NCBI GenBank assembly: GCA_944388745.1
Contig: CALXJZ010000001.1
Coordinates: 5,976 to 69,975 of the forward strand
Length of the DNA: 64,000 bases
Source: an uncultured Clostridia bacterium
Lineage (GTDB): Bacteria; Bacillota; Clostridia; TANB77; CAG-508
Reading direction: 5' to 3'
Shown: one piece after another, positions 4,176 through 54,498 of the stretch
How the letters are laid out: every line of letters begins with the position of its first letter
Position numbering within the stretch: position 1 is the first letter of the stretch
The notes under the pieces: generated by a model
What the model was told of the DNA's origin: nothing
What the model saw: only the letters and a program-made list of their open reading frames with translations
The model's database searches: none
Translations under genes and position numbers: made by a program

Positions 4176-4200
4176 TAAAATTTTCTTCCTTTCTTCGTTA

Positions 4201-4260
4201 TGGTCAGTTTGGGGACAGGTTCGGACTAACCATTTTGGGTTACTTTGGGGACGCCACTTT
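4201..4260 (+). repeat. Family-A dispersed palindromic repeat, copy 1 (TGGTCAGTTTGGGGACAGGTTCGGACTAACCATTTTGGGTTACTTTGGGGACGCCACTTT)
   Basis: Near-identical copies at 22556-22624 (inverted) and 44952-45018. Contains GGTCA..TGACC inverted arms and two T(T)GGGGAC(A/G) cores. Lies 25 nt upstream of the ynbB-like start. Confidence 0.8.
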
Positions 4261-7400: not shown

Positions 7401-10400
7401 CATTATCTAACTTTTTATCTACACTTAATTCTATACTTCCATCAAATTTGTTGTATCCATTTGGTCCTGTTGTTTCTTTTATTACATATGTATCTGGTAT
7501 TTCTGTGTTTGCTATTCCAAATGTTCCTAAGTTTACTATTCCGCTTGCATTTGTTGCTTCTTTGTCTTCTCCATTTACATTGAATATTGCTCCAGTTAGT
7601 TTTGCTCCTGTTTCTCCGTCTTGTTTTACTAACTCTATTTCATAGCTTCCTTCTATCTTTTTGTTTGGTACTGTTACTGTTATCTTTCCATTTTCTAAGT
7701 TGGCATTTACTTTTCCTTCTGCTAATCCTGTTCCTTCTACATTTTTTAATTCTATGTTATTTACTACATATTCTCCATCTTGTATTCCTTTTGTTACTTC
7801 TAGCTCTACACTATTAAATATTTTGTTGTATCCTTCTGGTGCTTCTATCTCTTCTATTTTTATTGTCTCTGTTCCTTCTTCTGTTATTTCTATTCCTTCT
7901 ATTTCTATTTTTCCCTCTGCATTTGTTCTTTCTGTCTTTTCTGTTCCATCTGCTAGTCTTACCTTAAACTCTGCACCTTCTAATACCTTTTCTTCATTTT
8001 CTTGGTCTACCTTTAATATTTCTAAGTTGTATCCTCCTGCTATCTTTTCATTTTCTACTGTTATTGTTACCTTACCTGTTGTTACATCTAATGTTACTGA
8101 AACATTTTCTGTTATTGTTGCTCCTGTGCTGTCTTTTACTACCATTGTTGTATTTTCTGTGTCTACTACATAGTTTCCATTTTCTAACTTTTTAGCTACA
8201 CTTAGTTCTATGCTTCCTTCAAATTTGTTGTATCCATTTGGTCCTGTTATTTCTTTTATTACATACGTATCTGGTGTTTCTATGTTTGTTATTGTAAATG
8301 TTCCTAAGTTTACTATTCCACTTGCATTTGTTGCTGTCTTATCTTCTCCATTTACATTGAATACTGCTCCTGATAGTTTTTCTTCTGTTTTTCCATCTTG
8401 TTTTACTAGCTCTATTTCATAGTTTCCAGTTGCTTTATCTAATATTAGTTTTTCAAAATCGTCATCATCTTGTTGTCCTTTATAGTAATAATTTGAATCT
8501 GCTAAATTTGATTGGTTGTTATTTCCTGTGTAATTTTCCATATTAGTTTGATTTACACTTGGTTCTGTCTCTGGTTCTGAATCTCTATCTAGCCCTTCTT
8601 GGTTTGTTATTGTAACATTACTCTCTGCATCGTATTCTTCCGCAATCCATGCAACATTTGTTAATACTTTTTCTCTTTCTCCTGGCTGTTCTACTACTTC
8701 GCAAGTTATTTCTATTGTTTCTTTGTCTAATTCTCCTCCTGTATATTTAGCTAAATTATCTGTATTGCCTGCTTTTCTAATTAAGTTTACTGTATTTGTT
8801 TCCTCATCATAGCTTTCTAATTCAAAATTTCCACTTACTACTTGTGAGAATTTTAATCCCTCTGGTAATTGATCTACTATTTTTGTTGCTCTTCCTTCTT
8901 TTTCTCCTTCATTATATATTGTAATTTCATATGTTACTATATTTCCTGTTTCTACTTTTACTGGATCTTTTCTATGTTTATATGTCGCTGTTGTTCCATT
9001 TTCTAATGTTGTTGTATCTATATTTGGTATTCTTGTATTACTTCCTGTTAATGTTTCTCCATTTACTTTTGTAATATATTTTCTAAGTGATAAGTCAAAT
9101 TCCTTTTTTACATTATCTACTGTTATCGTTATTTTCTGAGTTGTTTTATCTATTGTTACTGGTATATTTTGTGTAATTTCTGTTCCTGTGCTATCTTTTA
9201 CTACCATTGTTGTGTTTTCTGTATCTACTACATAGTTTCCATTTTCTAATTTTTTGGCTACATTTAGTTCTATACTTCCGTCAAATTTGTTGTATCCATT
9301 TGGTCCTGTTGTTTCTTTTATTACATATGTATCTGGTCTTGTTATATCTGTTATTTCTACTGTTCCTAAACTTAAAATTCCACTTGAATTTGTCGCTGTT
9401 TTATCTTGATTGTTTACATTAAATACTGCTCCCGATAGTTTTTCTCCTGAAACTCCATCTTGTTTTACTATCTCTATTTCATAGCTTCCTTCTATCTTTT
9501 TGTTTGGTACTGTTACTGTTATCTTTCCATTTTCTAAGTTGGCATTTACTTTTCCTTCTGCTAATCCTGTTCCTTCTACATTTTTTAATTCTATGTTATT
9601 TACTACATATTCTCCATCTTGTATTCCTTTTGTTACTTCTAGCTCTACACTATTAAATATTTTGTTGTATCCTTCTGGTGCTTCTATCTCTTCTATTTTT
9701 ATTGTCTCTGTTCCTTCTTCTGTTATTTCTATTCCTTCTATTTCTATTTTCCCCTCTGCATTTGTTCTTTCTGTCTTTTCTGTTCCATCTGCTAGTGTTA
9801 CCTTAAACCTTGCATCTTCTAATACCTTTTCTTCATTTTCTTGGTCTACCTTTAATATCTCTAATCCATATTCTCCTGCTATCTTTTCATTGTCTACTGT
9901 TATTGTTATTTTACCAGTCGTTTTGTCTATTGTTACTGGTATATTTTCAGTAATTTCTGTTCCTTCGCTGTCTTTTACTACCATTGTTGTATTTGCAATA
10001 TCTACTACATATCTTCCATTTTCAATTTTTTTTGCTACATTTAATTCAATGCTTCCTGTAAATCCATTGTATCCACTTGGTGCTGTTACCTCTTTTATTA
10101 CATAGCTATCTCGTGTTGAAGCATTTGTTATTTGTATTGTTCCTAAACTTACTATTCCGCTTGAATTTGTTGCTGTTTTATTTTGTCCATTTACACTAAA
10201 TATTGCTCCAGTTAGTTTTGCTTCTGAAATTTCATCTTGTTTTACTAGTTCTAATTCGTATTCTCCTTGTAAATTAGGTATTTCAATCTCTAATTTTTCT
10301 GGTATTGAAATTTCTTCTTTTTCTGGTATTACTACTGGTTGCTCATCACCATTTGTGTTTGACGCCCATAAAGTAAAGTTCGTTTTATCATAATCTATAT

Positions 10401-16404: not shown

Positions 16405-16434
16405 AGGGATTTAGAGCTCCGTCCCCTAATCCCT
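16405..16434 (-). repeat. GGGGACG-core hairpin (AGGGATTAG GGGACGGAGCT CTAAATCCCT) overlapping the gdpP stop codon
   Basis: 9-bp inverted arms with a loop carrying the same TAGGGGACG core as the family A/B repeats. No strong U-tract follows. Confidence 0.55.
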
Positions 16435-22450: not shown

Positions 22451-22555
22451 ACACCTTTAAGAAAATCATTTTATCTTTTTTGAGTCATCACCACTTAATT
22501 ATGTATCTGAAATCACTATATCATAAACTCAACTGTTTTTCAACATTGGTTATTA

Positions 22556-22624
22556 GTGCCGTCCCAAAACTAACCAAAAATGGTCACTCCGAACCTGTCC
22601 CCAAAGTGACCACAATGACCAAAA
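22556..22624 (-). repeat. Family-A dispersed palindromic repeat, copy 2 (inverted relative to copies 1 and 3)
   Basis: The reverse complement reads TTTTGGTCATTGTGGTCACTTTGGGGACAGGTTCGGAGTGACCATTTTTGGTTAGTTTTGGGACGGCAC. Lies between the SNF2 helicase stop and the 139-aa gene start. Confidence 0.8.
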
Positions 22625-25600
22625 TTAATTAAATAAATTCATTATTTCTTCTTTTGATAATTTGTTTATAAATGATGTTTTTGTGCTTAGCATATTGTCT
22701 ACTAACTCTGATTTTTTTTGTTGTAACTCATATATCTTTTCTTCTATTGAATTTTTTGTTATTAGTTTATATACTTGCACATTATTTTTTTGTCCAATTC
22801 TATAGGCTCTGTCTGTTGCTTGATTTTCTGTTGATATATTCCACCATGGATCATAATGTATTACCATATCAGCACCTGTTAGGTTTAATCCTGTTCCTCC
22901 TGCTTTTAACGATATCAAGAATATTTTTATATCTGAATTACTGTTAAATTCATCTACCATTCTAATTCTTTCATCTACTTTTGTGCTTCCTGTTAGTTTA
23001 TAATACTCAATATTTTTCTTTTTTAATTTTTCTTCTATTATTGGGAACATTGATGTATATCCTGAAAATAGTAATATTTTGTGTCCCCCTTCTATTGCAT
23101 CTTGTACTATTTCCATACATTGATTAAGTTTTCCGCTTCCTTCTTTATAGTCTTTGATAAACAGACTTGGATGGCAACATATTTGTCTTAATCTTGTTAA
23201 TACTGCTAATATTTGCATATGACTTTTTTCATATCCATTTAGTTCTATTTCTTGGAATAAGTCTTGTTTTGCTTGTGCCAAATATGTTAGATATATATTT
23301 CTTTGCTCTTCTTCCATTTCATTATTTAATACTGTTATTGTTTTATCTGGCAATTCTGTTAGTACTTCTTTTTTATTTCTTCTTAGTACAAATGGTTCTA
23401 TTAGCATTTTTAATTTTGCCATTGCTTTCTCATCATTGTCTTTTACTATCGGTACTTCATACATTGTTTTAAATTGCTTATATGTAAATAAATATCCTGG
23501 CATGATGAAGTCAAATATTGACCATAATTCTGCTAATGAGTTTTCTATTGGCGTTCCTGTTAACGCATATCTTGTGTCTGCTTTTATTTGTTTTATTGCT
23601 TTTGCATTTTGTGTATTACTATTTTTTAAATATTGTGCTTCATCTGCTATTATATATCTAAATTGATATTTCTTATCTTTATATAAATCAATATCTCTTT
23701 TTAATAGGTCATATGATGTAATTACTAAATCATAGTTTTCTATTTCTTTTATTTGTCTTTTTCTTTCTGATAAAGTTCCCCTAATTACTAATATTTTTAA
23801 ATCTTTTGCAAATTTGTTTGCTTCATTTTGCCAATTTAATGTCAGTGAACTTGGTGAAACTACTAAACTTGCTCTTTTAGTTTCTTTTTGAAAATTGCTC
23901 TTTTCTTTTTGTTCTATTAATTCATTTTTGTTCTCTTCAGAATTTTCTACTCCGTCTTTACTTCTGGCTTTTTCTACATAATCAACAATTACAGATAACA
24001 TTTGAATAGTTTTTCCAAGTCCCATATCATCTGCAAGTATTCCGCCAAATTCATATGAATCTAAAATCTTTAACCATTTGAATCCTGTTTTTTGATAATA
24101 TCTTAAAACATTATTTAAATTTTCTGGTATTTGGATCTCATCTTCTAAATGGTCTTTATCTAAATTATTTACTATTTCCCTATATTCACCATTTTTTGTT
24201 ACTTGAATTCCTTTTTTACTTTTTAATAGCTGGTTTAGATATAAACTTCTATAAGCTGGTAAAACCACTTCTCCTTTTTCTAGTTCTTTATAATCAATAT
24301 CCATTCCAGTAACAAGCTTGTCTAAAAAGTCAATCTCTTTATTATCTTCTAAGTTTAAAAAACTACCATCTTTTAGTCTATGATATTTCTTTTTTAATTG
24401 ATATTTTTCCATTATCTTTTGTAATTCTTTTATATCTATGTCTAAATCATTTAAATCTATTGATAATAAGTTATTTTCTACTTTTACTCCAATATTGCCA
24501 ATTTTTGCTTGTCTTATTTGTTTCGTCTTAAATTTTTCAGTAACTAAAACTTCAAATCTTTTCATATATACATTTATATCTTCTGTCAAAAATTCATAAA
24601 TTTTGTCATTATCAGGTAATATAAATCTTAGATTCTTTGTATCTAGCATAAATCCTGTTTTTCTAAATATGTTTAATGCTTTCGTCTCTTGAATCATGTT
24701 TCTTGGAAATTTTAGTTCTTGTTTTTCATCTAATGGATTAAATTCATTATTTTCATAACAAAATAGTACATCTGCAACTAGATAATCTTTCTCGTCAAAA
24801 TCTAAATATACCTTTACTACTAATTCTTTTGGTTTGTATTTTTCAATTTCTTCTTCTGATATATTTTCAATTGTTATTGCTGCTCTTACTTTTGGCATTA
24901 TTATTGAAAATAGCTGTGTTAATTCTTCTTTTCCCAAAACTATTTCTGTCATATAATTTTGCCTAAAAAATTCTAATAGCTTTAAATTGGCATTTTCAAA
25001 TTCTTTGCTACATCTATATATTTTTTTACTATCTAAAATGTATTTGTATTCTTTCCCTTTTAAAATACTAACATTAAATATTTCTACATTTGGCAAAATT
25101 ACATATTGATTATCTGATTTCTTTTTTAATGTAAAAGATATTTTTGGGTCTTCATTTGCAAATTCGATTTTTTCATTTAAATAGTCTCTTTGAAATTCTA
25201 CTTGTTTTCCTTGTAATATTTCAAATAAATCATCTATTCCACTATTTCCTAGCAAAATGCTTGTTTCACTTAATGCTTTTCCATAATAACGATAATTACT
25301 GTTTGAATTTGAATTTGCATATTTTATAATTTCTGCATATTTTAATAAAAAATCAAGTAATTTTTGACTTTCTTCATCAAACATTTCTTTAGTATGTACG
25401 AATTGTAGTTTTTCTCCATATTTATAAAATTCTTTTTCCATCATTCTTGTATAAAATTCTGATAGATTTTTTATCTTATACATTCTTTTGTTTCCAATTT
25501 TAAATTCTACTTTCATGTCTCCCAAAAATTTGTCATAGATTACTTTAGGCTCTAAATGAATTGTTCCTTTATTTTTTAATTCTTCATCATCACTATCAAT

Positions 25601-31118: not shown

Positions 31119-31282
31119 TTGTATTCCCCCATCATTAAAATCTTACAATTATATTTTGACATATTTTTTAATTATTTTCAAGTGTTTTTCTTATTATTTT
31201 ATTATACCAATACTTAAAAATATTAATCTCCTTACAGTTAATTGAATTTGCAGATTTTATTACAGTTATGTTACAATTTTCT

Positions 31283-34200
31283 TTACATATCTTCTACTAT
31301 AATTCTTTTTAGCATCAACATGTCTGTTACATCTACATTTCCATCTTCATTCATATCTGCTAATAATAAAGCTCGTCCTGTTAGTATCCATTCTGTTCTA
31401 CTTCCTGCAACTAAATGTCTCTTTAACATTAGTAAATCTGTTACATCTATCCTTCCATCTTGGTTTACATCTCCAATTTCTATTTTTTCTATGTTTATTA
31501 TTTCTACAATTGCCTGTATCTCATTTCCTGCTAAATCTTTTATTGTTATTGTTTCATTTGTGTTTTCACTATATTTTTTTGTTAGTATTTTTTTATTTTC
31601 TGATAGTATCCATCCTTCTACTTCTTGTATTTCTTCATTTGATGTTATTGTTACTATTACAGGATCTTCTGTTATTTCTTTTGTACTATACTCTATATTT
31701 ATTATTGGTGCTGTATTGTCAAAGTTAAATGCTTCACTTTTTGTTATTGTTTCATTTTCTAAATTATCTTCTGCATATATCCACAAATACCATTTTCCAT
31801 CTCCTGTACTTTTTGTGATTGTTTGTCCATTTTCAAAACTTTCTGTAAAACTTTCTTTTGTAGGCTCTGTCTCACTTTGTGTCCATTGGTATTTTAAACT
31901 TATATCTTTTACACCAACCTCTTCTTGGTTATCTGCTACACCTACTTTTACACTATATCCCTTTTGTGGATTTTCACTTCCATTAGGTTCAAATGTTATC
32001 TCTGGTCCTTCATTATCAATTATATATCTTTGTCCATTTTCTTCTGCGTATTTATGCCCTTCTGTATCTGACTTTGTATATATAATTAAATTATCGCAAT
32101 GTTCAAAAGCCTCACTTTCTATAGTTCCTACGTTTTCTGGAATAACTATGCTTTTTAAATCACTACAATCATAAAACGCTTGACTTCCTATCTTTGTTAC
32201 ACTAAGGGGAAGTATTATGTTTTTTAAACTGATACATCTTGAAAAAGCCATCGTCTCTATAGTAGTTACTCCTTCTGGTATTATTATACTTTCCAAATTA
32301 CTACATTCATCAAAAGTTGCATATTCTAATGTAGTTACACTATCTGGTATAATTACTTTTACCAAATTAGTACATTGATAAAATGCTCTTTCTTTTATAG
32401 AAATAACTCCTTCTGGAATACTATATTCACTTATATCTTCCTTTCCTTCTGGAAATTTTATTAACTCTGTTTTTTCTTTATTAAATAAGATTCCATTTTC
32501 ACTTATGTAATTATTATTATATGAATTCACATTAATACTTTGTAGATTGCTACATCCATAAAATACATCATCACCTATGCTTGTTACTCCTCGTGGAATT
32601 TCTATATTTGTTAAATTACTACATCTTGCAAATGCATTATTTCCTATAACAGTCACTGTATCTGGAATTACTATATTATTCAAATTTATACAATAATTAA
32701 AAGTATATGATTCTATGGTCTTTATATTATTAGATAAAACTACATTTTCTAAATTAATACAGTTAGAAAATGCTTCACTATCAATAACAGTTACACTATT
32801 TGGAATATTTATACTTTTTAAACTAGTACAGTAGGCAAATGCTCTAAAACCTATACTTGTTATACTTTCTGGAATATTTATATTTTTCAAATTAGTACAA
32901 TTATAAAACATACAATTACCTATAGTTGTTATTTTATTGTCTACAACTACATTTTCTATAAAAGTAGTATATTGATTATTGTGCCAGTCACTTTGTTCAT
33001 TATATTCCCAGTTTTTTATTTCTCCTTCTCCTGTTATTGTCAATGTTTTATCTTCTAAAGTCCATTTAGCAATTACACTTTCATCTTGATTTACTGATAT
33101 GTCCCAAGATTTTTCTTCTTCAATTTGATATTCTGTAGAAGTTTCATACGCTATTCCATTTAAAATATATGGTACTTTATGTTCTTCTGCATATTTATGC
33201 CCTATACTATCTGCTTCAACATATAATATTAATTGATTACATCCAGAAAATGCACTTTCCCCTATACTCGTTACACTAGTAGGAATATTTATATTTACTA
33301 AACTAGCACAGTTTGAGAAAGCTTGATTCTCTATACTTATTACTCCTTCTGAAATATTTACACTTCTTAAATTACTACAATTATAAAAAGTAGAATATTT
33401 TATATCTGTTACATTTTCTGGTATATTTATACTTTCTAAACTACTACAACCATAAAAGGCTAGCTCACCTATACTTGATACATTTTGAGGTATTTCTATA
33501 TTTTTTAGAATAGTACATCTTCGAAATGCATTTTCGCCTATACTTTCCATACTGTCTGGTAATCTTATACTTTCCAAAGTGTTACAATTTGCAAATGCAT
33601 AACTTTGTATTCTTTTTATACCTCCTGCAAAGTATATGTTTTGCAAATTATTACAATTATAAAAAGTATAATCTCTTATAGTTGTCACCTTGTCTGGAAT
33701 AGTTATGTTTTCTAAATTAGTACATCCATAAAATGAATAAGATTCTATGTTTTCAACACTGTTAGGTATAATAATACTTTCTAGGCTTGTATTACCATAA
33801 AAAGCATAATAATAAATAGTTGTTACAGTATCTGGTATTTCATATTCTCTTAAATCTTTCTTTCCTCCCGGAAAACAAATAAGTTCATCTTTTTCTTTAT
33901 TAAATAATACTCCATTTTCATCAATAAATTGATTATTATTTTCATTGACATTTATTTTCTCTAGATTAGTACAACCGGCAAAAGCTCCGTAACCTATACT
34001 TATCACATTAATCGGAATATCTATACTTGTTAAATTACTACATCCTGAAAATGCATAGTATGATATACTTGTTAAACTTTCTGGAATTTCTATACTCGTT
34101 AAATTATTACATCCTGAAAATGCATTCTCTCCTACTCTTGTTACTCCTTCCGGAATTTTTATTTTATCTAAACTACTACATTTTGAAAACGCACTATTTT

Positions 34201-34636
34201 TTATATTTATTACTCCAACTGGAATATTTATACTCTCTATACTACTACAATTTGAAAATGCATAACTTCCTATATTGGTTATACCTTCTTCTATACTTAC
34301 ACTTTCTATAATATTAGTATATTGTGTATTATGCCAATCTTCTTCTACATCATATTTCCAATCTTTCATTTCGCCTGTTCCAGATACTGTTAATTTCTTA
34401 TCTTCTAAAGTCCATTTGGCAATCACACTTCCATCTCCATTTGCAGATATATCCCATGTTTCTTCTCCTTTTATTTCATTATTTTTTGATATCACTTCTG
34501 TTGTATCTGTGCTTTCTGTTGGTGTATCTGCCGCAAATGACTCTTTTTGAAATAGAGGTGTTATTGGCATTCCTAATTGAAATATCATTGTTAATATTGC
34601 AATTATTGATATAGTTTTTCCTATTCCCTTTTTCAT
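31283..34636 (-). CDS. secreted BspA-type leucine-rich-repeat protein with C-terminal Ig-like and type-I dockerin module
   Basis: More than 25 repeats of ..SV.SIG..AF.GC..L.SI.IP... (BspA/Treponema-type LRR). C-terminal duplicated Ca-binding dockerin loops DVNQDGRIDVTDLLMLKRHL and DMNEDGNVDVTDMLMLKRII. Confidence 0.8.
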   Translation of the reverse strand: MKKGIGKTISIIAILTMIFQLGMPITPLFQKESFAADTPTESTDTTEVISKNNEIKGEETWDISANGDGSVIAKWTLEDKKLTVSGTGEMKDWKYDVEEDWHNTQYTNIIESVSIEEGITNIGSYAFSNCSSIESINIPVGVINIKNSAFSKCSSLDKIKIPEGVTRVGENAFSGCNNLTSIEIPESLTSISYYAFSGCSNLTSIDIPINVISIGYGAFAGCTNLEKINVNENNNQFIDENGVLFNKEKDELICFPGGKKDLREYEIPDTVTTIYYYAFYGNTSLESIIIPNSVENIESYSFYGCTNLENITIPDKVTTIRDYTFYNCNNLQNIYFAGGIKRIQSYAFANCNTLESIRLPDSMESIGENAFRRCTILKNIEIPQNVSSIGELAFYGCSSLESINIPENVTDIKYSTFYNCSNLRSVNISEGVISIENQAFSNCASLVNINIPTSVTSIGESAFSGCNQLILYVEADSIGHKYAEEHKVPYILNGIAYETSTEYQIEEEKSWDISVNQDESVIAKWTLEDKTLTITGEGEIKNWEYNEQSDWHNNQYTTFIENVVVDNKITTIGNCMFYNCTNLKNINIPESITSIGFRAFAYCTSLKSINIPNSVTVIDSEAFSNCINLENVVLSNNIKTIESYTFNYCINLNNIVIPDTVTVIGNNAFARCSNLTNIEIPRGVTSIGDDVFYGCSNLQSINVNSYNNNYISENGILFNKEKTELIKFPEGKEDISEYSIPEGVISIKERAFYQCTNLVKVIIPDSVTTLEYATFDECSNLESIIIPEGVTTIETMAFSRCISLKNIILPLSVTKIGSQAFYDCSDLKSIVIPENVGTIESEAFEHCDNLIIYTKSDTEGHKYAEENGQRYIIDNEGPEITFEPNGSENPQKGYSVKVGVADNQEEVGVKDISLKYQWTQSETEPTKESFTESFENGQTITKSTGDGKWYLWIYAEDNLENETITKSEAFNFDNTAPIINIEYSTKEITEDPVIVTITSNEEIQEVEGWILSENKKILTKKYSENTNETITIKDLAGNEIQAIVEIINIEKIEIGDVNQDGRIDVTDLLMLKRHLVAGSRTEWILTGRALLLADMNEDGNVDVTDMLMLKRIIVEDM

Positions 34637-34867
34637 GTGTAGTTCCCCTTTCTTTGTTACACTTTCTTTCTCTTAAATCTATTTTACTTTACTTATAATA
34701 TATAAATTTTTTTATACTTTGTAAATATAGCTTTTGCTTGGTAGCGTGAATGTATATTAATTCTACTTACGGCTACTATTCTTTTACTTTTTCTTTTTAA
34801 TTATTAAGTTTTTATTACATTTTTGTTTAATTATTATTTTTTTTTAATCTCTTAACATTATTATCAG

Positions 34868-34894
34868 CAAAAAAATAGACGTACCTCGTACGTC
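34868..34894 (-). terminator. rho-independent terminator after the second dockerin gene
   Basis: Minus-strand GACGTACGAGGTACGTC hairpin followed by TATTTTTTTGC. Confidence 0.65.
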
Positions 34895-34949
34895 CGTAGT
34901 CTGTTTTCTTTTGAAAACATATCATTTATTTTCAATTTTCATATTATTA

Positions 34950-37900
34950 TTACATGTTCTCTACAATTATTCTTTTTAACATCAACATATCTGTTATATC
35001 TACATTTCCGTCTTCATTCATATCTGATGCTAGGAAATAATTTCCTGTTAATATCCAATTCACTTTATTTCCTGCTACTAGATGTCTTTTTAACATTAAG
35101 AAGTCCGTTACATCTTTTTTTCCATCTTGATTGATATCTCCTATTACTATCTCCGGTTCTTCTTCAATATTATTAATCTCAATTATCACTTGCGTTTCAT
35201 TTCCAACTAAATCTTTTATAGTTATAGTCTCTTTTGTATTTGCACTATATTCTTTTGTCAATGTCTTTTTATCACTTGATAATGTCCAACCTTCTACTCC
35301 TTGTATTTCTTCATTTGATGTTATTGTTACTTTTACATTCTTTCTTGTTGGATTTTTTGTACTATAATTAACTGTTAAAATTGGTGATACTTCATCTTTT
35401 TCATTTACCTCTATTGTAAATGTTGAACCTTTTAAAATCCCTTCATTAATTGTAACCATTGCTTTTTTAGCTGTACTAGAATGATGTAAAGTTAATATTA
35501 TTTTAGTTCCATCTTCGTTCAATTTACAATTATATACCTGCAAACCTTCTTCAGAATATGCCTTACTTTCTTTATTTTGGGCTTGCAAAAATATTTTTGG
35601 CAAACTAATTTCTTCTCCTATCTCTCCATTTGAAATCAGTGCTTGATTACTTACATTATATCCACTTATATCTGATATTTCTTCTAGCACACTTACATCT
35701 GAAATACAATTATTCCACGCACCAAATTTCTTCAAATTCTTTAATTCTTTTACTACTTCTATATTATCTATTTTATTTCCTTCTCTTTCCAAACTTCCTT
35801 GTATTAATTTGTCAAAATATACTTCTTCTAAATTTTTCAAACTTGAAAGGTTAGTAATATCCGTCAAATTATTTGTTTGTAAATTTAAATACTTTAAATT
35901 TTCACAATCTAGTATAGGAATCTCTTTTAAATTATTATATTTTAAATCTAATCTTTCTAGTTCTATTAATCCATTTAATGGAGTAATATCTATTATCTTG
36001 TTAAAACTCAAATCTAAATTTGTTAATTTTTTTAAATTATTCAAACTACTAATATCTCTTATATTATTCCAACTTAAATTTAAAATCTCCAATTTTTCTA
36101 AATCCTTCAAACACTCAATATCAGTTATATTATTCCTTTTTAAATTTAATGTTGTTAAACTAGTCAAGTTTTCCAATCCTGTAATATTATTTATTTCTTT
36201 ATCTGATAAATCTAATTCTGTTATATATTCTATATCTTCTTCTAATATATTAATTTCCAAACTATCATCATTATTTTCATAAATAAATATTCCTATTTTA
36301 TCAAGCAAACTATTATAAAAGTTCTTATCTTTTAATGATATTACTATTTCATCTTTTTCATCATTAAAAACTGGATATCCATCATTTTTATTTTCAGAAT
36401 CCAAAACAAATACATCATCACTATTATTTAATAAATTGACAAAATCTTCTGTTTTCATAAAATTACTGTCTTTTGATATTATATTATTTAGAACATTCCC
36501 TGTATATGTTGATTTTAAATAATAACAATTGCTTATCGTTCCAGTGTTAGTATTTATAATATTTACAGTTTTAGCAGTATTAAGTTGACTAATAGTATAA
36601 CAATTTGTAATACTTCCATCATTTTGATATATTAATCCCATTACTTTTGGTGAAATATTTAATCCATCACGTACCTCACTTGAAATTTCTCCTTTTGAAT
36701 AACAATTATATATCTCACCTGAATAATTTAATACCGCTATACCAGCTGAAACAAGATTATATGCTCCTGTCCTACTAACACCATTTGATTTTCCAATAGA
36801 AGTAGTTACACTACCATAATTAGCACATCTATTTACAGTACCACATTGGTTGCTACTTATAATTCCTCCTGCCGAAACAACTCCCTTAATATTTCCAAAA
36901 TTGATACAATCTATAAGATTTCCCCCATTACTTTGGACAATCCCTGCAATTTCTGAAGCAGTATATTCATAATTTTCGGGATCTTCATTTTTATGATGAC
37001 TAATAATTTCTCCATAATTATTACATCTTTTTACAAAAACTTTTTCTTTTTTTCCTCCTGTTGTTGCAACTATTCCTGCAACTCCATCAGCACCTTCTAC
37101 ATTTCCATAATTATGACAATTTACTATGATTGCCATAGAATTTTCTGATACAATTGTGCTTTGCCCACTTATTCCTCCTACATCAGAATTGCCTCTATTT
37201 ATTGTAGATTCTATTTTTCCATAATTTAAACAATCTTTTATTCCACTAGTATTATCTCCACATATTCCTCCTATAAAACGTTTACCTCTTACGTTTCCAT
37301 TATTAATACAATCTATAACTATATTATCATATTGTGTAGTTTTATTACATCCTACGATTCCTCCAACATACTCTCTATTTTCTATCCTAGCTTCATTTAT
37401 ACTCTCTTTTACAATTCCGTTATTTAATCCTACTATTCCTCCCACAAAAGTTAACTCGTCTGTATCTATTATTACATCAGAATTATTATTACACTTAAAA
37501 ATAGTTCCAGAATTTTTACCTACTATTCCTCCTACATAATTATACGATATATAAGCGTTTAAACTAACTGAACCGTTACTAACACTATCTCTCATTTCTC
37601 CACTATTACTTCCTACAATACCACCAATATTTGTCTCAGTCCCATGTATATCAAGCATAGTCTCTACATTTTCTATAATTCCTCTATTTGTTCCTACTAA
37701 TCCTCCTACACCCCAATCGTTAGCTTCATTTCCAATAACTGTTCCAGAAGATATATTTAAATTTTTTATAGTTCCATTGTTATCTGAAAAGAAACCTTTA
37801 CCCAAATTATTGCTATCACTTATATATAAATTACTTATTATATGGTTTCTTCCATCAAATGTACCTTCAAAAGCATAAGAATCATTTCCAATTGGTGTCC

Positions 37901-44389: not shown

Positions 44390-44948
44390 TTAGGTCAAAT
44401 TTTTATATTCATTAATAACTAATTTTAAATCTTTTATAAAATCAATTTTCTTAGTTTCATCTCTTAAAAGTGCAGCCGGATGCCATGTTGGCATATATTT
44501 AATTCCTTTTTTCTCAACCCATTTTCCTCTAGATTGTGTTATGCCATACTCATGTCCTAATATATTTTTTAATGCCACACTTCCGCAATAAAACAATTAT
44601 TTTAGGTTTAACTAAAATAACTTGGTTTCTTAAATAATTCATACAGCTATCGGCTTCATCTTGTTCTGGATTTCTATTTGAAGGTGGTCTACATTTAACA
44701 ATATTTGCAATATATACTTCGTCACGCTTTAATCCGACCATTTGAAAGGCCAAATTCATAAGTTGTCCTGCACGACCTACAAAAGGTTCTCCTAATCTAT
44801 CCTCGTCTGCTCCTGGACCTTCTCCTATAAACATTAAATCCGCATTTTTATTTCCAGTTCCAAAAACTATGTTATGCCTTCCTTTATATAATTTACACTT
44901 ATTACAATTAATTATTGAATTTTCTAGTTCTTCCCATGTTTCAAACAT
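44390..44948 (-). CDS. udg: family-4 uracil-DNA glycosylase, interrupted by a single +1 frameshift near 44585
   Basis: [24 protein letters not shown] (family 4 UDG) in ORF 44550..45002. The C-terminal part (...[11 protein letters not shown]...) is in the overlapping ORF 44390..44596. Removing one C from ttgCggaag on the coding strand restores ...[18 protein letters not shown].... True start is MFETWEEL at about 44948. Confidence 0.7.
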
Positions 44949-44951
44949 TTT

Positions 44952-45018
44952 GCTCACTTTGGTCACTTTGGGGACAGGTTCGGACTGACCATTTTTGGTC
45001 ATAAAAGGGACGCCACTT
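44952..45018 (+). repeat. Family-A dispersed palindromic repeat, copy 3
   Basis: GCTCACTTTGGTCACTTTGGGGACAGGTTCGGACTGACCATTTTTGGTCATAAAAGGGACGCCACTTTTC, ending 4 nt upstream of the udg ATG. It explains the spurious N-terminal extension [18 protein letters not shown] in the ORF track. Confidence 0.8.
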
Positions 45019-48186: not shown

Positions 48187-49035
48187 TTATTTTTCAATCA
48201 TAATAAAAGCTGCACATAAACCATATCCCTGCTTCTCAACTCTAAATGAATGTATCAAATCTGAGTGACACACACTACATATTCCACTATCTACAATATT
48301 TTCTTCCTTTAAGCCAACTTTTTGCAAAATTATTTTATTTATCAAAACTGTATCTATATTCCATTTCTCATTTGGAATTTTCTCCTGTATTATATCACAT
48401 AATTGGTCATTTTTTAAGTCTTTATATTCATTTTCAAACATTTCTTTAACATCTCTATCTACTTCAAAATGACATTTCCTAATACTTGGACAAATACAAC
48501 ATATTATATCTTCTGGATTACAACCAAATTCATTTTTCATTTTTTCAACTGTTTTAACTGAAATCCTTTGAATTGTTCCTTTCCAACCAGAATGTGTATT
48601 TGCTATTACTTCCTTTACTGGGTCATAAAATAACAGTAATATACAATCTGCATTTGTAGTCTCCAATATAATATCTTTCTTGTTTGTAATTAGTCCATCT
48701 GTTTTAGAATAATCGCTTGTTTCAAATTCTGGTCTATCCTTATACCTCTTATTTTTTACAACTTTTATTTCGTCTGTATGGTCTTGTGCAGGCTTAATAA
48801 TCTTTGTATAATCATCATTTACTTCTTCAAAAAATTTCTTATATGTATTAATATTTTTCTCATATCTTTCTTTTGGTAACTCTTTTTTATCAGGAGTCAA
48901 AGTTCTAAAATCGTTGTTAATTCCTAAGGTATATGCATGTTTTATTTTATCTTTATATTCCAATAATCTCCTAAACTGCAAATATTCAATTCCATTCTTT
49001 TTAACATGAATTACATTTTCATTTGATAAATCCAC
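48187..49035 (-). CDS. pgeF: peptidoglycan editing factor PgeF / YfiH (DUF152, purine nucleoside phosphorylase LACC1 family)
   Basis: ILLLFYDP...HSGWKGT...CICPSI..CHFEV conserved motifs. Apparent GTG start with an AAGGAGG SD. Confidence 0.8.
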   Translation of the reverse strand: MDLSNENVIHVKKNGIEYLQFRRLLEYKDKIKHAYTLGINNDFRTLTPDKKELPKERYEKNINTYKKFFEEVNDDYTKIIKPAQDHTDEIKVVKNKRYKDRPEFETSDYSKTDGLITNKKDIILETTNADCILLLFYDPVKEVIANTHSGWKGTIQRISVKTVEKMKNEFGCNPEDIICCICPSIRKCHFEVDRDVKEMFENEYKDLKNDQLCDIIQEKIPNEKWNIDTVLINKIILQKVGLKEENIVDSGICSVCHSDLIHSFRVEKQGYGLCAAFIMIEK

Positions 49036-52000
49036 TGTTTTCCTCCTTTATACATGTCTCATTGAGAAACGTCCCCATTGAGACATTTTGTGGAACATAG
49101 TTATAATTATTATCCTTATTTTGCGGATTAAAACCACAAATTGCTTTATATTCACAATACTCACAAGGAGTTTTACCCTTTTTATTATATGGTTTTATTT
49201 CTATATTTCCATTAAATATCTCTTTTGCAATCTGTTTTATAGTTATATTTATATAATCTTGTAAAACTTTAAATTCTTCTTTACTCACACCATTTGTCCA
49301 CTTTTTATTTACTGAACCTGACTGCGTAATTGCTGCTGGTACTAGCTTTGAGCTTCCAGATGATAATGTATTATCATTCATCTTTATTATTTTTACATCT
49401 GCGACTATAAGCCCTTTCATCTTAAAGTTTTTTTGTATCATATTTTCAATTTCTTCTTCAGATATCCTTTTATCAGCTTTAATCATTTGCTCTAATAATG
49501 AAAAATAAAATATTCCCGCAGGCATAATATCTTCTTCTTTGCAAATTGCATCCATATATGTCAATAGCTGAATTTGCAAACCTGCATACACTTCATTTAA
49601 ATCTATATTCTTGCTTGAAGATTTATAATCTATAATTCTTAAATATTTCCCATCTTCTTCGTCTGCTGTATCAATTCTGTCAATTTTTCCTGTAATTTCA
49701 ACTCTTTTTCCATCTTCTAACTCTAAAATTATAGGTTTATACTTTCCATTTTTGCCGAATTCAACTTCTGTTCCTTCTATACTAAAATCACTATGTATTA
49801 TTGTTTGAATTATATATTTCAAGGCTTTTGATACAATTCTTTTTAATCTTCTTACTAATACTTTATATTTTACTGTTGCTGTAAACATGTAGTTTTTAGA
49901 ATCTTCTAAGTTTTCTTCTATTATCTCTGACACTAATTCAAATATTTTATCTTCTTCTAATTCTGCTAGATTAATATTTTCTTTTCTAGTTGTCTCAAAA
50001 AATTCATCAATTGTTTCATGCATAAATGAACCTGTATCAAAGGTATGTATTTTTAGTTCTTCCTTTTCTTTTAGTTTTAAGCCATATTGCAAATAATATG
50101 AAAATGGACAACTTCTATATTTTTCTAATCTTGATACACTTGTATTTAATGTATTTCCATATAATTTTTCAATATTTTCTTTCTGAAGTTTTTCTGGTTG
50201 ATTTGTATAAAACAATGCCTGTAAGTCCTTATTTAAAACTTCCTTCCAGTTGATTTTGTGTTTATAGTATTTATATATTAAATACCATATATCTTCAATT
50301 TTTTCCTTGTTTTTTAATCTTGCAATATTTTGTAATAGCTCTTCATATGTAACTTTTGCATTTGCAATTTCATATTTTTTCTCTATTACATCACTTTCTT
50401 CTTTCAAATTTGGATATATTCTTTTTAACTTATTTATGTATGTAGAAGGTCTTAATGATTTTCCTTCTTTATCTGTTGAACAATATGATATATATATGCT
50501 ATTTTCTGCTGTTGTAAATGCTTTATATATGTTAAAGTTTTCTTCATATAGATTTTCAACAGTTCCTTTTGCAATTTCTAGCCCTTCATTTTTTAGATAT
50601 TCTCTATCTTCATCATTGAAAAAGCCTTCATCTTTGTTCACACTTGGAAATTGTCCATCATTTACACCAATTAAAAATACTGTTTTTACTCTATGACTCC
50701 TTGAACGGTCAACGTCTGCAAATGTTACTTGGTCTTGTGTTCCTGGTATTTTCCCAAGCCCACTATTTTGCATACCAACTTTTAATATTTTGCTATATTG
50801 GTCTAATGTCATTTTGTCATCTGCAAATGTTAACACAATTTCATCCATAATTTCTAGTATTAGTTTATAACTTTGGATATATTCTTCAGCTAATTCAATA
50901 AGTTCTTTTTCTTTTAACTCTTTTACCTTTTGCTCAATTTTCTCTTCAATATTTTGCTCTTGTAAAAATTCATATAAACATCTACATATATTTTGTGCTG
51001 TTTTTTCTTCGTTAATTTGTTGTTTCAATTTTATCAGTGGTTCTACTATTTGCTTTCTTAATTCCTCTAATCTTTCAATTTCTTGAACTTTATCCACATT
51101 TTGTTTATCATATGTGAATTCTTTTTTCCATTTATTTTGTTTTATTCCCCATTTGGTACAATAATTTTCTAATTTAAATATTTCGTCTTTTTCAATATCA
51201 AAAAATCCAGATTTTAAATAGAAAAATACACTTTCTGTTGTGAAATTTTTATTTAATATCTCAATAATTGATAATATGTATTGTGTAATTATATTTTGAT
51301 TTAAATCTCTTTTTTCATCAATAAATACTGGTATATTATATTTTAAAAATATACTTCTTACCAATGATGAATATTCTTCTATATTTTTGGTTATTATTGC
51401 AATATCTTTATATCTTAACCCTTCATCTCTTACTAATCTTGTGATTTGTCTTGCTACTTGCTCTATTTCACTATATGGATTTTGGGCTAAAAACATATTG
51501 ATATTTTGGTTTTCTTTTTGATATTTTTGTATTTTTATATTCCCTATATTATCACTTAAATGTTGTAATTCTTCTGTTTTAAATCTATATTGTTTTTTCA
51601 AACAGACTGGTTCTTCTAACTTAAATCCATTTTCATCTATTAAATTGATAATCTTTTTTAAAGTTTGTTTATTAGAATAAAATATATCTGTATCAGGATT
51701 TGTATTCATTTCTAAGTTATCTATACACATTGTGATGTTTACTTGTTTTGCCTGTTCAATTAATTTTTTTATAACTTCATATTCTTGTCCGAGTAAATCC
51801 TGCAAATTCATCTAAATATATTATGCTATCTTTAATAAAATTTGTTTGTTCAACATTTTGACTAAGTATTGTTAATAAATCTGTATCTTCTATGTATTTT
51901 CCTTGTATTTGCTCTTCAAATTTTTCATAGATTAATATCATATCTGATAATTTTGCTTGCAAATAATTGTCTTCTGTTTTTTCTTGTTCTTCTTTTAAAT

Positions 52001-52396
52001 TTTCAATTGTAATTCCATGTTTTTTTAATTCTTTTATTGTATTCATACTTAATTCAATATTTTCATCTGATTTTCCTAGAAATTTTAAATCTTTTTTGTA
52101 CTTATTTAATATAGAATATATAAGTATTGCTTTTCCACATTTTGAAATTTGAGTTTTATTTGCTCCACCTATCTCATTTATAACTCTATATGCTAACCTA
52201 CTTAATGTTACAACTTCTGCATTTAATACTGCGTCTCGATTTACTGCTTCCATTAGCTTCTTTTCAGCAGTAAATGAAAATTGCTCTGGTGTTATCATAT
52301 ATATTTTTTTCTCTTTATCTATTAAATTTGCTATCTCTTTAAAGCAAAACTCACTTTTTCCTGTTCCTGGTTTGCCATATATAATTCTTAAACTCA
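49019..52396 (-). CDS. addB: ATP-dependent helicase/deoxyribonuclease subunit B (AddB/RexB), interrupted by a single +1 frameshift near 51791
   Basis: N-terminal ORF (51777..52412) has P-loop IIYGKPGTGKSE. The 930-aa ORF 49019..51811 carries the C-terminal RecB-nuclease/Fe-S Cys cluster (CEYCEYKAICGF). Combined length about 1140 aa. Removing one C from actCggaca restores a single frame. Probable TTG start at about 52396 after GGAGGTG. Confidence 0.8.
49053..49087 (-). repeat. Family-B REP-like hairpin repeat (ATGTCTCA | TTGAGAAACGTCCCCAT | TGAGACAT)
   Basis: Perfect 8-bp inverted arms around a conserved GGGGACGTTTCT-containing loop. Lies in the last codons of addB and just upstream of the pgeF RBS. 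Confidence 0.8.
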
Positions 52397-52410
52397 AATT
52401 TTTCACCTCC

Positions 52411-52443
52411 ATGTCTCATTGGGGACGTTTCTAAGTGAGACAT
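52411..52443 (+). repeat. Family-B REP-like hairpin repeat (ATGTCTCA | TTGGGGACGTTTCTAAG | TGAGACAT)
   Basis: Same element in the opposite orientation, immediately 5' of the addB start. Followed by a second small hairpin TGTCCCATTTTGGACA. Confidence 0.8.
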
Positions 52444-52469
52444 TTTGTCCCATTTTGGACACATCTTCT

Positions 52470-53336
52470 CTATGCTTCTCGCCTCCAATAAAATAAATAT
52501 TGTTGTGCTAACCCTGCCAAATCACCAAATTTCTCTTGAGCTATTTTTTCAATTTGTTTTTTATTTACCTTTGTTTCATCTTCGTTATGGATATATAAAT
52601 CATTCATAACTCTTCTAACCCAAACATCAATTGGGAAAACTTCAAATCTTTTCAAATCTGAAAATAGCAAAATACAATCTGCAACCTTTGGTCCAACTCC
52701 TGATAAACTTAGTAATTGTTCTCTTACTTCCATAGTATTTGGATTGTTCTTCATTTCTTCTAAATCCACTTTTTTATCCAATATCATCTGTGTTGTTTCA
52801 TATAATCTTATATCTCTAAATCCTAGTCCTAACTCTCTATATTCTTGAACTGTAACATCTTTTAAATCTTTAGCAGTTGGAAAAGTATAATATTTTGTAT
52901 CATTCCATTCTATCTCTTTTCCATATTTTTTTGATAATCTTTCTATAATTCCTTTGATTCTTGGAATATTGTTATTTGCAGAAATTATAAAAGATATTAT
53001 TGTTTCCCATAAATCTTGATTTAATATCCTTATTCCCTGTCCATATTCTATACTTTTCTTCATATTTTCATCTATTTTTTCTAGCTTACTCTTTATTTTT
53101 TGATAATCTCTGTTTAAATCAAAATATTTTTCTACTGTTTCTTTTATATCTTCTTTACAAATCCCTTTGAAGATAACTTCATTTCCTGTTTTGGCAACGT
53201 TTAAAACATTATCTCCAAATACACCTGTATAGCTTCCATCTTGCTGTTCATTCCATCTAAAGCATTGTCCACACTCAAATATATCTTTTAATTCAAATGA
53301 ATCTATATTACTTATTTTATATTCTTGTTCTCTCAT
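52470..53336 (-). CDS. ogg: 8-oxoguanine DNA glycosylase / DNA lyase (Ogg, HhH-GPD superfamily)
   Basis: HhH-GPD motif LLSLSGVGPKVADCILLF with catalytic Lys and Asp. About 288 aa, matching the Clostridial/archaeal-type Ogg. Confidence 0.8.
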   Translation of the reverse strand: MREQEYKISNIDSFELKDIFECGQCFRWNEQQDGSYTGVFGDNVLNVAKTGNEVIFKGICKEDIKETVEKYFDLNRDYQKIKSKLEKIDENMKKSIEYGQGIRILNQDLWETIISFIISANNNIPRIKGIIERLSKKYGKEIEWNDTKYYTFPTAKDLKDVTVQEYRELGLGFRDIRLYETTQMILDKKVDLEEMKNNPNTMEVREQLLSLSGVGPKVADCILLFSDLKRFEVFPIDVWVRRVMNDLYIHNEDETKVNKKQIEKIAQEKFGDLAGLAQQYLFYWRREA

Positions 53337-53434
53337 TTTTTATTCTTCCTTTTATATTCTTTTTTCACATACATTATACAATAAATTCGCACTTTTGAAC
53401 ATAGTTTTTAACAAATCTATCTCCAAATAAAAAA

Positions 53435-53466
53435 ATGTCGCATAAGAAACGTCCCCATTGCGACAT
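53435..53466 (-). repeat. Family-B REP-like hairpin repeat (ATGTCGCA | TAAGAAACGTCCCCAT | TGCGACAT)
   Basis: Arms carry a compensatory T:A to G:C change relative to copies 49053 and 52411. Overlaps the stop codon of the YitT gene. Confidence 0.8.
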
Positions 53467-54335
53467 TACTCTTTTTTAAATCCCAATCCCACTACTTCTC
53501 TTGAATTCGTTATTATTATAAAAGATTTAGGATCTATTTTTTTTGCAATCACTTTTATTCGATTCACATCTCCTCTTGAAGCTGCACACATTAAAATTAA
53601 CTTGTCTTCATTTGTATACATCCCTTTTCCATATATTCCTGTTGCTCCTCTTTGTACCTTTTCTCCAACTTCTTCTGCTATCTCCTCGGTTTTATCCGAT
53701 ATTATTAATAATAACTTTGTAAAATTTATTCCTTCAAATAATATATCAATTATTTTTCCCATTAAATATATTGAAATCGCTGAATACAAGCCTATTTCTA
53801 TCTCTCTGAAAAATACAACATTTAATGCCACAATTATAATATCTATTATCATAATTAAATTTCCCACTTTAACATTTGGTTTATATTCTTTTACAATAAA
53901 ACTTACTATATCACTTCCACCTGTTGATGAATTTACTTTTAATATTATTGCAGTTCCTAGACCTAACAAAATTCCTCCATATATACATGCTAAAAACCTA
54001 TCATTTGTTAAAGGTTCAAATTTGTCAAAAAAGTCAATGAAATATGATAAAGCAATCGTTCCTATTAATGATTTTACAAAAAAACTTTTTCCCACCTTAA
54101 AAAATGCCATCATAAATAGCGGAACATTTATTAAAAGTATCATTGTTCCCATTGGAATTTTTAATAGATAATATGTTATTGTAGCAATACCAGCTACTCC
54201 ACCTGAAGATAATTGGTTTGGTAATAGAAATAGCGAAACTCCTAATGCCATTATTAATGCTCCTATTATTGTTAAAACTATTTCTATTATTATTTTCGGT
54301 ATATTATATTTTTCTTCTATATGCATAAAAACCAC
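53466..54335 (-). CDS. YitT-family membrane protein (DUF161/DUF2179)
   Basis: N-terminal TM region with GGxAGI..I motif (SSGGVAGIATITYYL) and a C-terminal DUF2179-like domain; 289 aa. Confidence 0.75.
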   Translation of the reverse strand: MVFMHIEEKYNIPKIIIEIVLTIIGALIMALGVSLFLLPNQLSSGGVAGIATITYYLLKIPMGTMILLINVPLFMMAFFKVGKSFFVKSLIGTIALSYFIDFFDKFEPLTNDRFLACIYGGILLGLGTAIILKVNSSTGGSDIVSFIVKEYKPNVKVGNLIMIIDIIIVALNVVFFREIEIGLYSAISIYLMGKIIDILFEGINFTKLLLIISDKTEEIAEEVGEKVQRGATGIYGKGMYTNEDKLILMCAASRGDVNRIKVIAKKIDPKSFIIITNSREVVGLGFKKE

Positions 54336-54379
54336 CTTTACCTTATTATTGGTAAATAGTGGCTTTTTTATTCACAAAG

Positions 54380-54498
54380 ATGTCGCGTTGGGGACGTTTC
54401 TCATGCGACATTCTTTTAGATTATAGCATAATACTAATTTTTAACACTCAATGTCGCATGAGAAACGTCCCCAACGCGACACGCCCCCAATGAGACAT
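54380..54498. repeat. BIME-like composite: two identical 32-nt family-B units in inverted orientation (54380-54411, 54451-54482) plus a truncated third unit (54483-54498)
   Basis: ATGTCGCGTTGGGGACGTTTCTCATGCGACAT and its exact reverse complement are separated by 39 nt. Followed by GCCCCCAATGAGACAT, which overlaps the radical-SAM gene stop. Confidence 0.8.

Follow-up and report, generated by a model that had tools for sequence, protein, structure and literature searches.

What are the nearly identical hairpins that occupy one gene junction after another in the genome of an uncultured Clostridia bacterium, and how did they come to be there? The question is raised by a 64,000-nucleotide (64-kb) stretch of contig CALXJZ010000001.1 (assembly GCA_944388745.1), hereafter the window, in which a cluster of such hairpins, denoted family B, had been described from the sequence as similar to repetitive extragenic palindromes (REPs). 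We find that these hairpins most probably derive, as non-autonomous copies, from the terminal inverted repeat (TIR) of an HUH/Y1 transposase locus that is single-copy and fixed in the chromosome, that is, a TIRtron, the gene of which is a TIRYT. The copies in the window are solo TIRs, consisting of one or two modules, and one TIR dimer, and the repeats are probably mobile.

All family-B copies in the window are confined to 5.5 kb, at consecutive junctions of a minus-strand string of genes for an MFS transporter, a pgeF-like protein (Cu-oxidase_4), AddB, OGG, YitT, a radical SAM protein and RNase III; the names previously given to the flanking genes, from pgeF to radical SAM, all agree with these assignments. 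The core 12-mer GGGGACGTTTCT is found in five exact copies, at 49065(-), 52421(+), 53445(-), 54390(+) and 54461(-), against 0.01 expected from dinucleotide-preserving shuffles of the window, and the stem-loop pattern ATGTCKC-N14-20-GMGACAT has four matches (49054-49086, 52411-52443, 53435-53466 and 54380-54411) against zero expected. With the addition of a half-unit at 54483-54498, the original prediction of five copies plus one partial is confirmed, as are the placement of the copies at consecutive junctions, in both orientations, and their overlap with stop codons or adjacency to gene starts; the first copy, previously placed at 49053, starts at 49054. With the filters off, a covariance model derived from 100 distinct copies returned just these five copies, with scores of 48.9-55.7 bits, and no additional degenerate copies of family B in the 64-kb window.

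The copy at 49054-49086 (-) is a solo hairpin containing module 1 only (arm ATGTCTCA, loop ATGGGGACGTTTCTCAA, arm TGAGACAT; 48.9 bits). It is embedded in the final codons of the addB open reading frame (ORF), directly upstream of the pgeF ribosome-binding site (RBS), and is translated as NVSMGTFLNET; the element is also kept at this junction in L019 and L104 (loci in related genomes are designated here by L numbers). A full-length, two-module solo TIR spans 52411-52467 (+), with the hairpin at 52411-52443 followed by TTTT and then by TGTCC-CATTTT-GGACA and CATCTTC; this copy adjoins the addB RBS, and its sequence matches that of the TIR bordering the Y1 gene in L036. The solo TIR at 53410-53466 (-) consists of a hairpin (53435-53466), a T-run and a degenerate module 2 (55.7 bits), and the hairpin begins on the final base of the yitT stop codon. 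A dimer without a strand of its own (54380-54481) occupies the spacer between yitT and the radical-SAM gene. It resembles a miniature inverted-repeat transposable element (MITE) or a REPIN, and in it two module-1 units, 54380-54411 (+) and 54450-54481 (-), converge; the latter copy is a perfect 32-nt inverted copy of 54381-54412, with a 37-nt spacer between the repeats, and the same arrangement recurs in L018 and L063. The partial unit at 54483-54498 (-), which comprises only the left arm and the G-box (ATGTCTCATTGGGGGCG), adjoins the outer end of the dimer and the radical-SAM stop codon. This half-unit is present in L063 as well, and similar outer half-units are found in L037, L059, L071 and L103.

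The aligned copies share the layout (A/G/T)TGTC-NNN-TT GGGGACGTTTCT N2-4 TG(A/C)GACAT TTTT. The full family-B TIR, of about 57 bp, is built from two modules. The first, module 1, is an imperfect hairpin of 8 bp, ATGTCNCA...TGNGACAT, which displays GGGGACGTTTCT in a 15-17-nt loop and is followed by a conserved T-run (GACATTTTT); in module 2, the arm and a GGGAC box are repeated, in the form TGTCC-N6-GGACA followed by CATCTTC. A complete unit is found in L036, where the 57-bp TIR ATGTCTCATTGGGGACGTTTCTGTGTGAGACATTTTGTCCATTTTGGGACATATCTTC is located at 3100-3157 and its inverse at 4130-4187. The compensatory changes reported for the stem hold within the window (TCA/TGA versus GCA/TGC), but genuine covariation across the 100 distinct copies is limited to a single pair: four of the eight pairs are invariant, and pair 6-28 alone varies in concert on both sides (GC in 42 copies, UA in 11, CG in 10, unpaired in 36). 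Across these copies, 88.4% of the cells are paired, compared to 85.0% in shuffles and 17-50% in slid controls, and cognate arms average -5.95 kcal/mol versus -4.82 kcal/mol for chimeric arms, with none of 2000 resamples reaching the observed mean. The hairpin is therefore a genuine palindrome, albeit an imperfect one, with stem covariation that is real and rests mainly on one pair. Hybrid stems, with left and right arms of different types, are frequent. Folded as single-stranded DNA, single units yield -7 to -9 kcal/mol (z from -2 to -4.4) and the 54380-54481 dimer -42 kcal/mol (z = -13.5). The base preceding the stem is A, G or T, and 'not C' at position -1 is the only positional signal upstream of TGTC. 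Comparison of the copy flanks revealed no conserved tetranucleotide, GTAG or CGTC, where the stem begins; CGTC occurs solely inside the loop, on the strand complementary to GGGGACG.

Given this clustering along a single gene string, one could regard the hairpins as operators, that is, binding sites of a regulator that controls a DNA-repair operon (pgeF-addB-ogg-yitT). All five window copies fall in a 5.5-kb part of one co-directional gene string, related genomes carry the element at three of the four junctions as well, the arms ATGTCNCA...TGNGACAT form a dyad, and the TGTCC-N6-GGACA of module 2 resembles a dimeric helix-turn-helix site. A scan of species-representative genomes with the pattern GGGGACGTTTCT-N1-4-TGMGACAT leaves this explanation scarcely credible. 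Among the matches listed, to which the figures below refer, there are at least 104 loci with at least 175 exact cores, at unrelated positions and in both orientations, in at least 27 assemblies, one metagenome-assembled genome (MAG) containing at least 43 cores; the possibility that the motif is restricted to this operon is contradicted by such a spread. Moreover, junctions gain or lose the element between genomes that are 90-95% identical, the conserved block is asymmetric, and the element flanks a transposase gene.

The assemblies with matches are gut MAGs labelled uncultured Clostridia, 'Clostridium sp.' or Bacillota, with a GC content of 26-30% (about 28%). Closest to the window among the loci is a CAWVDV MAG, which is 96% identical to it over L063 and to which L036 also belongs. 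With the window included, 170 of 180 copies lie outside ORFs and the remaining 10 within about 50 nt of an ORF end. Neighbouring copies tend to be paired in a particular way: among 75 neighbouring pairs, 54 are convergent (+ then -) and 6 divergent, with the convergent pairs mostly spaced by 43-300 bp and their TGTC ends facing outward; tandem groups of copies are found as well, for example in L065 and L069. None of the 43 distinct dimers shows a target-site duplication at its ends. A separate idea, that the elements insert preferentially beside ribosome-binding sites, was dropped, as RBS-complement words occur upstream of TGTC 26 times versus 21 times for their reverse in 162 distinct flanks.

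The junctions occupied by the copies comprise 105 tandem, 26 convergent and 9 divergent ones. This distribution, the conserved T-run after the hairpin and the high stability of the dimer hairpin would suit host-selected signals at the RNA level (terminators, attenuators or mRNA-stabilising hairpins), in which case the link to a transposase would be incidental; in E. coli, REPs have been reported to stabilise mRNA and to terminate transcription (PMC6006769). Yet the orientation of the copies relative to transcription is near random (60:45) although the T-run is on one strand only, a 15-17-nt loop with a folding energy of -7 to -9 kcal/mol (DNA parameters) is poor for an intrinsic terminator, and both the inverted pairing and the flanking of the Y1 gene are left unexplained, so that we consider such an origin unlikely. 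A terminator scan identified one site, in module 2 of one copy, which equals the shuffle expectation. Rfam gave no match at the gathering score for the whole window and, at E<1, merely spurious sub-threshold matches of miRNA precursors to the long dimer hairpin. Secondary effects of the copies on mRNA are possible.

As a side observation, the right arm (TTGAGACA / GCGACA) can be read as a -35-like hexamer located 16-18 nt from a -10-like hexamer, at 49078-49107 (+), 54405-54432 (+) and 54457-54428 (-) of the window; the best case, TTGAGA-18-TATAAT, matches 11 of 12 positions and is antisense to addB. Promoter-like sites show no enrichment, with 47 observed versus 50.5 in shuffles.

Presence or absence of the element at orthologous junctions, suggested earlier as a check, was found at ogg/addB and at yitT/ogg. 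At ogg/addB, 76 nt (52400-52475) present in the window are missing from L019 and L104, with flanks that are 94-96% identical. In the empty sites, the ogg stop and the addB start overlap (TTGA); in the window, the ogg stop codon TAG is inside the insert and the addB RBS is duplicated. The insert is bracketed by an imperfect direct repeat of 11 bp, at 52400-52410 and 52476-52486 (TTTTCACCTCC / TTCTCGCCTCC; 9/11 identical), which is present in a single copy in L019 and L104; a search for a donor copy with the 11-nt left flank of the 52411 copy found none. At yitT/ogg, 56-57 nt (53410-53466) are present in the window and L104 and missing from L019, and no target duplication is seen when the occupied sites are compared with the empty one. 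Because the two insertions differ in their distribution over the three genomes, they represent separate events. A third, less precise case is a copy that is shared by L036 and L081 and absent from L060.

The ends of the elements also invite comparison with MITEs derived from a conventional insertion sequence of the DDE type, one with TG...CA termini, and mobilised by an unseen DDE transposase. The elements start with TGTC and finish with GACA, the dimers have TIRs of 32-57 bp, the internal subrepeats resemble multiple transposase-binding sites, and there is the 11-bp near-duplication at the ends of 52400-52475. We nevertheless judge this derivation very improbable: a target duplication is found neither in any of the 43 distinct dimers nor at 53410-53466, and the sole gene found between long TIR pairs, in several genomes, is of the Y1/HUH type, with no DDE gene seen between any pair.

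Several features of addB in the same three genomes are recorded here in their own right. The C-terminus of AddB (window 49019-49086; L104 5195-5245) is encoded by the repeat, through readthrough of the ORF into the element; in L104, a TAG stop codon immediately follows the element, and the ORF in the window is 12 codons longer and overlaps the start of pgeF. About 250 additional bases (5245-5460) separate the addB-end element from the start of pgeF in L104; they are absent from the window and L019 and include a GC-rich segment (GCAGTACCGCGTAGCGACCAAACGAGCC...). At its other end, addB consists of two overlapping minus-strand ORFs (51777-52412 and 49019-51811), with a one-base frame change near GGATTTACTCGGACAAGAATATGAAG (window 51777-51811) and a separate ATG, at 51811, for the second ORF. 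The sequence at the frame change is identical in L019 and L104, that is, in three species-level MAGs; because the split is present in three separate assemblies, it cannot be put down to an isolated assembly error. It could be read as a split gene that is conserved, as a pseudogene common to the three or as a recoding site.

An indication of the origin of the repeats comes from a gene. The original prediction had called for a search for an associated RAYT-type gene (RAYTs being the REP-associated tyrosine transposases), and one exists in the closest relatives, flanked by inverted copies of the element. ORFs of 256-259 amino acids in this configuration were identified in L036, L081, L069 and L099; in L036, the gene (3316-4086) lies between the 57-bp TIRs (3100-3157 and 4130-4187), and in L069 (3552-4325) and L099 (2472-3251) between the longest element pair. 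Partial copies of the gene are present in L031 and L086, and a tblastn search detected none in the 64-kb window.

The product of this gene is an HUH/Y1 protein that is RAYT-like. It matches Pfam Y1_Tnp with 57-60 bits (cut-off 23), and the top NCBIfam model is REP_Tyr_transpos (NF047646, equivalog), with 71.7 and 74.4 bits. The motifs H60-V-H62 and Y119-IHQ-N123-P124 (Y-x3-NP) are invariant in 27 homologs. A single-sequence search of the PDB returned nothing relevant; the sole match in a profile search was 4ER8, E. coli TnpA-REP (E = 0.013). The AlphaFold model of the protein (pLDDT 87.5, pTM 0.81) has the same structure as its best Foldseek match (E = 2e-6, target-normalised TM-score 0.74, root-mean-square deviation 2.5 A), followed by the IS200, IS608 and ISDra2 transposases. 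In the model, residues ~140-256 form an additional helical C-terminal domain of about 115 residues, to which HTH_23 matches are weak and limited to 3 of 20 members. The protein family comprises at least 928 members (E <= 1e-5) of about 256-260 amino acids, all from metagenomes or MAGs.

The fold of this protein, the hairpins and the lack of target-site duplications are all as in IS200/IS605, and the repeats could accordingly be palindrome-associated transposable elements (PATEs) of an ordinary multi-copy element of that kind, instead of belonging to a domesticated system of the RAYT/TIRYT type. That they should be PATEs strikes us as highly unlikely. The IS200 model (NCBIfam NF033573) reaches only 24-25 bits, where its cut-off is 55, versus 72-74 bits for the RAYT model; Y-x3-NP marks class 2, which is RAYT-like (PMC6006769); inverted repeats take the place of distinct left and right ends, with no tnpB nearby; and the gene is found at one conserved radA locus even where the proteins are 56-60% identical.

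In L036, L081, L069 and L099, the Y1 gene is located between a miaB-like gene plus a small ORF and radA. Homolog P0073 (60% identical) has the order mreB, miaB-like gene, small ORF, Y1 gene, radA, disA, and P0093 (56% identical) shows the same mreB-to-disA synteny. The inverted repeats around P0073 are 44 nt long, with GGGGACAGTCCCC plus TGTCGCAT, and those around P0093 are 71 nt long, with GCAAA-TAGGGACGTTTCT-TTTGC, then GCTCC-TTTT-GGAGC and then AATTGGGGACACATCTT; both carry GGGGAC or GGGAC boxes. A third homolog, P0050, is encoded at a different locus and retains the TGTCGCAT/ATGCGACA stem with a differing loop (TAGGTTCGTTTGTCT), two repeats being present on either side. Each of the three lies between repeats of which further copies occur in nearby spacers. 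The TIR-flanked arrangement is seen in L105, L107 and L109, with radA synteny in L105 and L107. Thus, stem and loop vary between protein clades around a constant architecture. Contig L108 is 1011 nt long and has both ends inside TIRs, a pattern to be expected of a TIR that is repeated in that genome, and many homologs of the Y1 protein are found just on contigs of about 0.9-1.4 kb; the TIR repeats appear to break short-read metagenome assemblies at the Y1 locus.

Downstream of the Y1 gene in L036 (4100-4190), a short ORF, preceded by a strong RBS (GGGAGG) and beginning with an ATG, passes through the right-hand TIR and stops just past the radA start codon. Given this arrangement, the right-hand TIR may affect the translation of radA.

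Among known systems, ours fits the TIRYT/TIRtron type rather than a canonical REP or IS200/IS605 element. TIRtrons, or TIRYTs, were described by Di Nocera et al. 2013 as RAYT-like genes flanked by long TIRs, some of which share GGGGWSAS and some of which have moderately abundant single, dimeric and grouped copies (PMC3733652). In the classification of Quentin et al. 2018, TIRYTs make up TnpAY1 subclass 2.1, with long proteins and C-terminal helix-turn-helix-like domains (Bac_DnaA_C, HTH_23, HTH_28-like; PMC6006769), and Bertels et al. 2017 found group 1 RAYTs in Clostridia, with flanking 16-mers repeated about 12 times per replicon (PMC5581495). Here, too, a RAYT-like HUH/Y1 gene lies inside long inverted repeats, not REPs, the TIR is dispersed as single, dimeric and grouped copies, and the protein, of about 256 amino acids, has a helical C-terminal extension. 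The gene probably corresponds to the group-1 RAYTs and to subclass 2.1. The main box of family B, GGGGACGT, matches GGGGWSAS at 6 of 8 positions, and exact matches are GGGGACAG, in family A (described below) and the L105 TIR, and GGGGACAC, at the inner end of the B TIRs of L080, L029 and L107. A difference is that the TIR forms a clear hairpin with the box in its loop, whereas no REP-like structures were seen near subclass 2.1 genes (PMC6006769). No Firmicutes example with a dispersed TIR family is named in the TIRYT literature that we found.

The REP-like label is apt in part. As in the REP/REPIN-RAYT systems of Proteobacteria, among them E. coli TnpA-REP and the Pseudomonas REPINs, the elements are short, imperfect extragenic palindromes, dispersed in many copies (counted in fragmented MAGs) with the inverted doublet as a unit, and they are linked to a repeat-flanked RAYT-type gene at a fixed, vertically inherited locus; there are no target duplications, some copies reach ORF ends, and 4ER8 is the best structural match. 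The likeness ends at the hairpin itself. In a canonical REP, a stem of 5-13 bp has GTAG or CGTC unpaired at its foot (PMC3733652), whereas the elements described here lack this tag and their conserved sequence is in the 15-17-nt loop, not in the stem or head; in addition, the unit is a two-module one of 57 bp, and the protein scores under the NCBIfam RAYT cut-off and has the additional C-terminal domain. With IS200/IS605 and PATEs, the system has in common the HUH/Y1 fold, ends that contain hairpins and, probably, transposition that leaves no target duplication, but it differs in its inverted-repeat ends, fixed-locus gene, class-2 Y motif and an IS200 score of 24-25 bits. Integron attC sites, CRISPR repeats and dif sites were set aside; they have no matching core, and the associated gene encodes a Y1 transposase.

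To our knowledge, nearly all work on REP/RAYT-type systems has concerned Proteobacteria, and we know of TIRYT and group-1 RAYT systems as catalogue entries only, with none tested biochemically. What is new here is modest: a populous Clostridial family, a two-module TIR with a box-displaying hairpin, the radA-side position and precise gain and loss events. The lineage offers a compact, well-populated example, with a defined TIR, solo and dimer derivatives, and gains and losses that can be dated between near-identical genomes, and the conserved-loop hairpin suggests a concrete substrate for in vitro assays. There are also practical consequences for the quality of gut Clostridia MAGs, in that the repeats lengthen or shorten annotated ORFs, as at the AddB C-terminus, and appear to break assemblies.

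How would a TIR-flanked gene populate a genome with such copies? Action on hairpins in single-stranded DNA is the mode of IS608, ISDra2 and E. coli TnpA-REP. By analogy, the Y1 enzyme would probably recognise the family-B hairpin on single-stranded DNA, and its catalytic tyrosine would cut and rejoin the strand, so that TIR-bounded segments would be moved or copied without target duplication. The dispersed copies would have been produced, and probably are still moved, by this enzyme, and would then persist or decay, tolerated in intergenic spacers. The data themselves show the anatomy and distribution of the copies, their inverted pairing, the lack of target-site duplications, the gains and losses, the linkage of TIRs to the Y1 gene and the protein's fold and motifs; mobilisation by this protein, its action on single-stranded DNA, the position of the cut and any effects on flanking mRNAs are inferred.

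Several points weigh against this account. The link to the Y1 gene is drawn from relatives that are 92-96% identical to the window over shared stretches, and the scores of 72-74 bits fall under the NF047646 RAYT cut-off of 80. Covariation is concentrated mainly on one pair, which 36% of the distinct variants break, and kinship among the copies inflates the shuffle statistics. The copy numbers per genome are lower bounds, coming from fragmented MAGs. HUH/Y1 transposition should produce no target duplication, and the 9/11 repeat around 52400-52475 looks like one. How a one-ended solo TIR could move is a further difficulty, and no biochemical study of any TIRYT was found in the literature searched.

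A bolder version of the TIRYT explanation can be formulated, in which the enzyme, rather than a remnant of a jumping gene, would be a host-retained HUH nuclease, encoded at a fixed position next to radA and disA, that recognises the loop-displayed GGGGACG... and nicks or rejoins there, hybrid stems being the outcome of loop-to-loop strand exchange. It draws on HUH Rep origins (rolling-circle plasmids, geminiviruses and circoviruses), in which the stem is variable, the loop sequence is invariant and the nick site lies within the hairpin loop. This is an analogy only, the protein here being a relative of Y1 transposases, not a Rep, and we regard the proposal as rather doubtful. If it were true, the recognition geometry of TIRYTs would differ from that of E. 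coli RAYT as well as from that of IS200/IS605, and a function linked to DNA repair or replication could have the dispersed hairpins as its sites.

Two further families in the window are relevant to the architecture of family B. The suggestion that families A and B and the hairpin at 16405-16434 belong to one superfamily is supported by the GGGGAC-in-loop architecture that they share. Family A elements are located at 4190-4258 (+), 22555-22625 (-) and 44947-45017 (+), all intergenic. The first consists of TGGTCAG, the loop TTTGGGGACAGGTTCGGA, CTAACCA, a T-run and GGTTAC..GGGGACGCCAC; the general plan, TGGTCAG - TTTGGGGACAGGTTCGGA - CTGACCA - T-run - GGTYA..GGGACGCCAC, is also found in L001, L032, L035 and L040, and no cognate Y1 gene of family A was identified. 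The intergenic hairpin at 16405-16434 (-), family C, has the arms AGGGATTAG and CTAAATCCCT and the loop GGGACGGAGCT. Two-module versions, with CAGGGATTTAGGGACGGACC as the second module, are present in L024 (~2230-2300) and L087 (~2655-2730), and in the CAYVCM MAG the GGGGACGGAGC box of family C forms the hairpin at the centre of many family-B dimers. A match to TGGGGACG at 20843 is inside an ORF, is probably unrelated and was dropped. Finally, the window contains large arrays of diverged coding repeats at 4546-10255 and 31276-35386, with periods of 390/777 nt and 69 nt; the very long minus-strand ORFs that contain them probably encode repetitive surface proteins.

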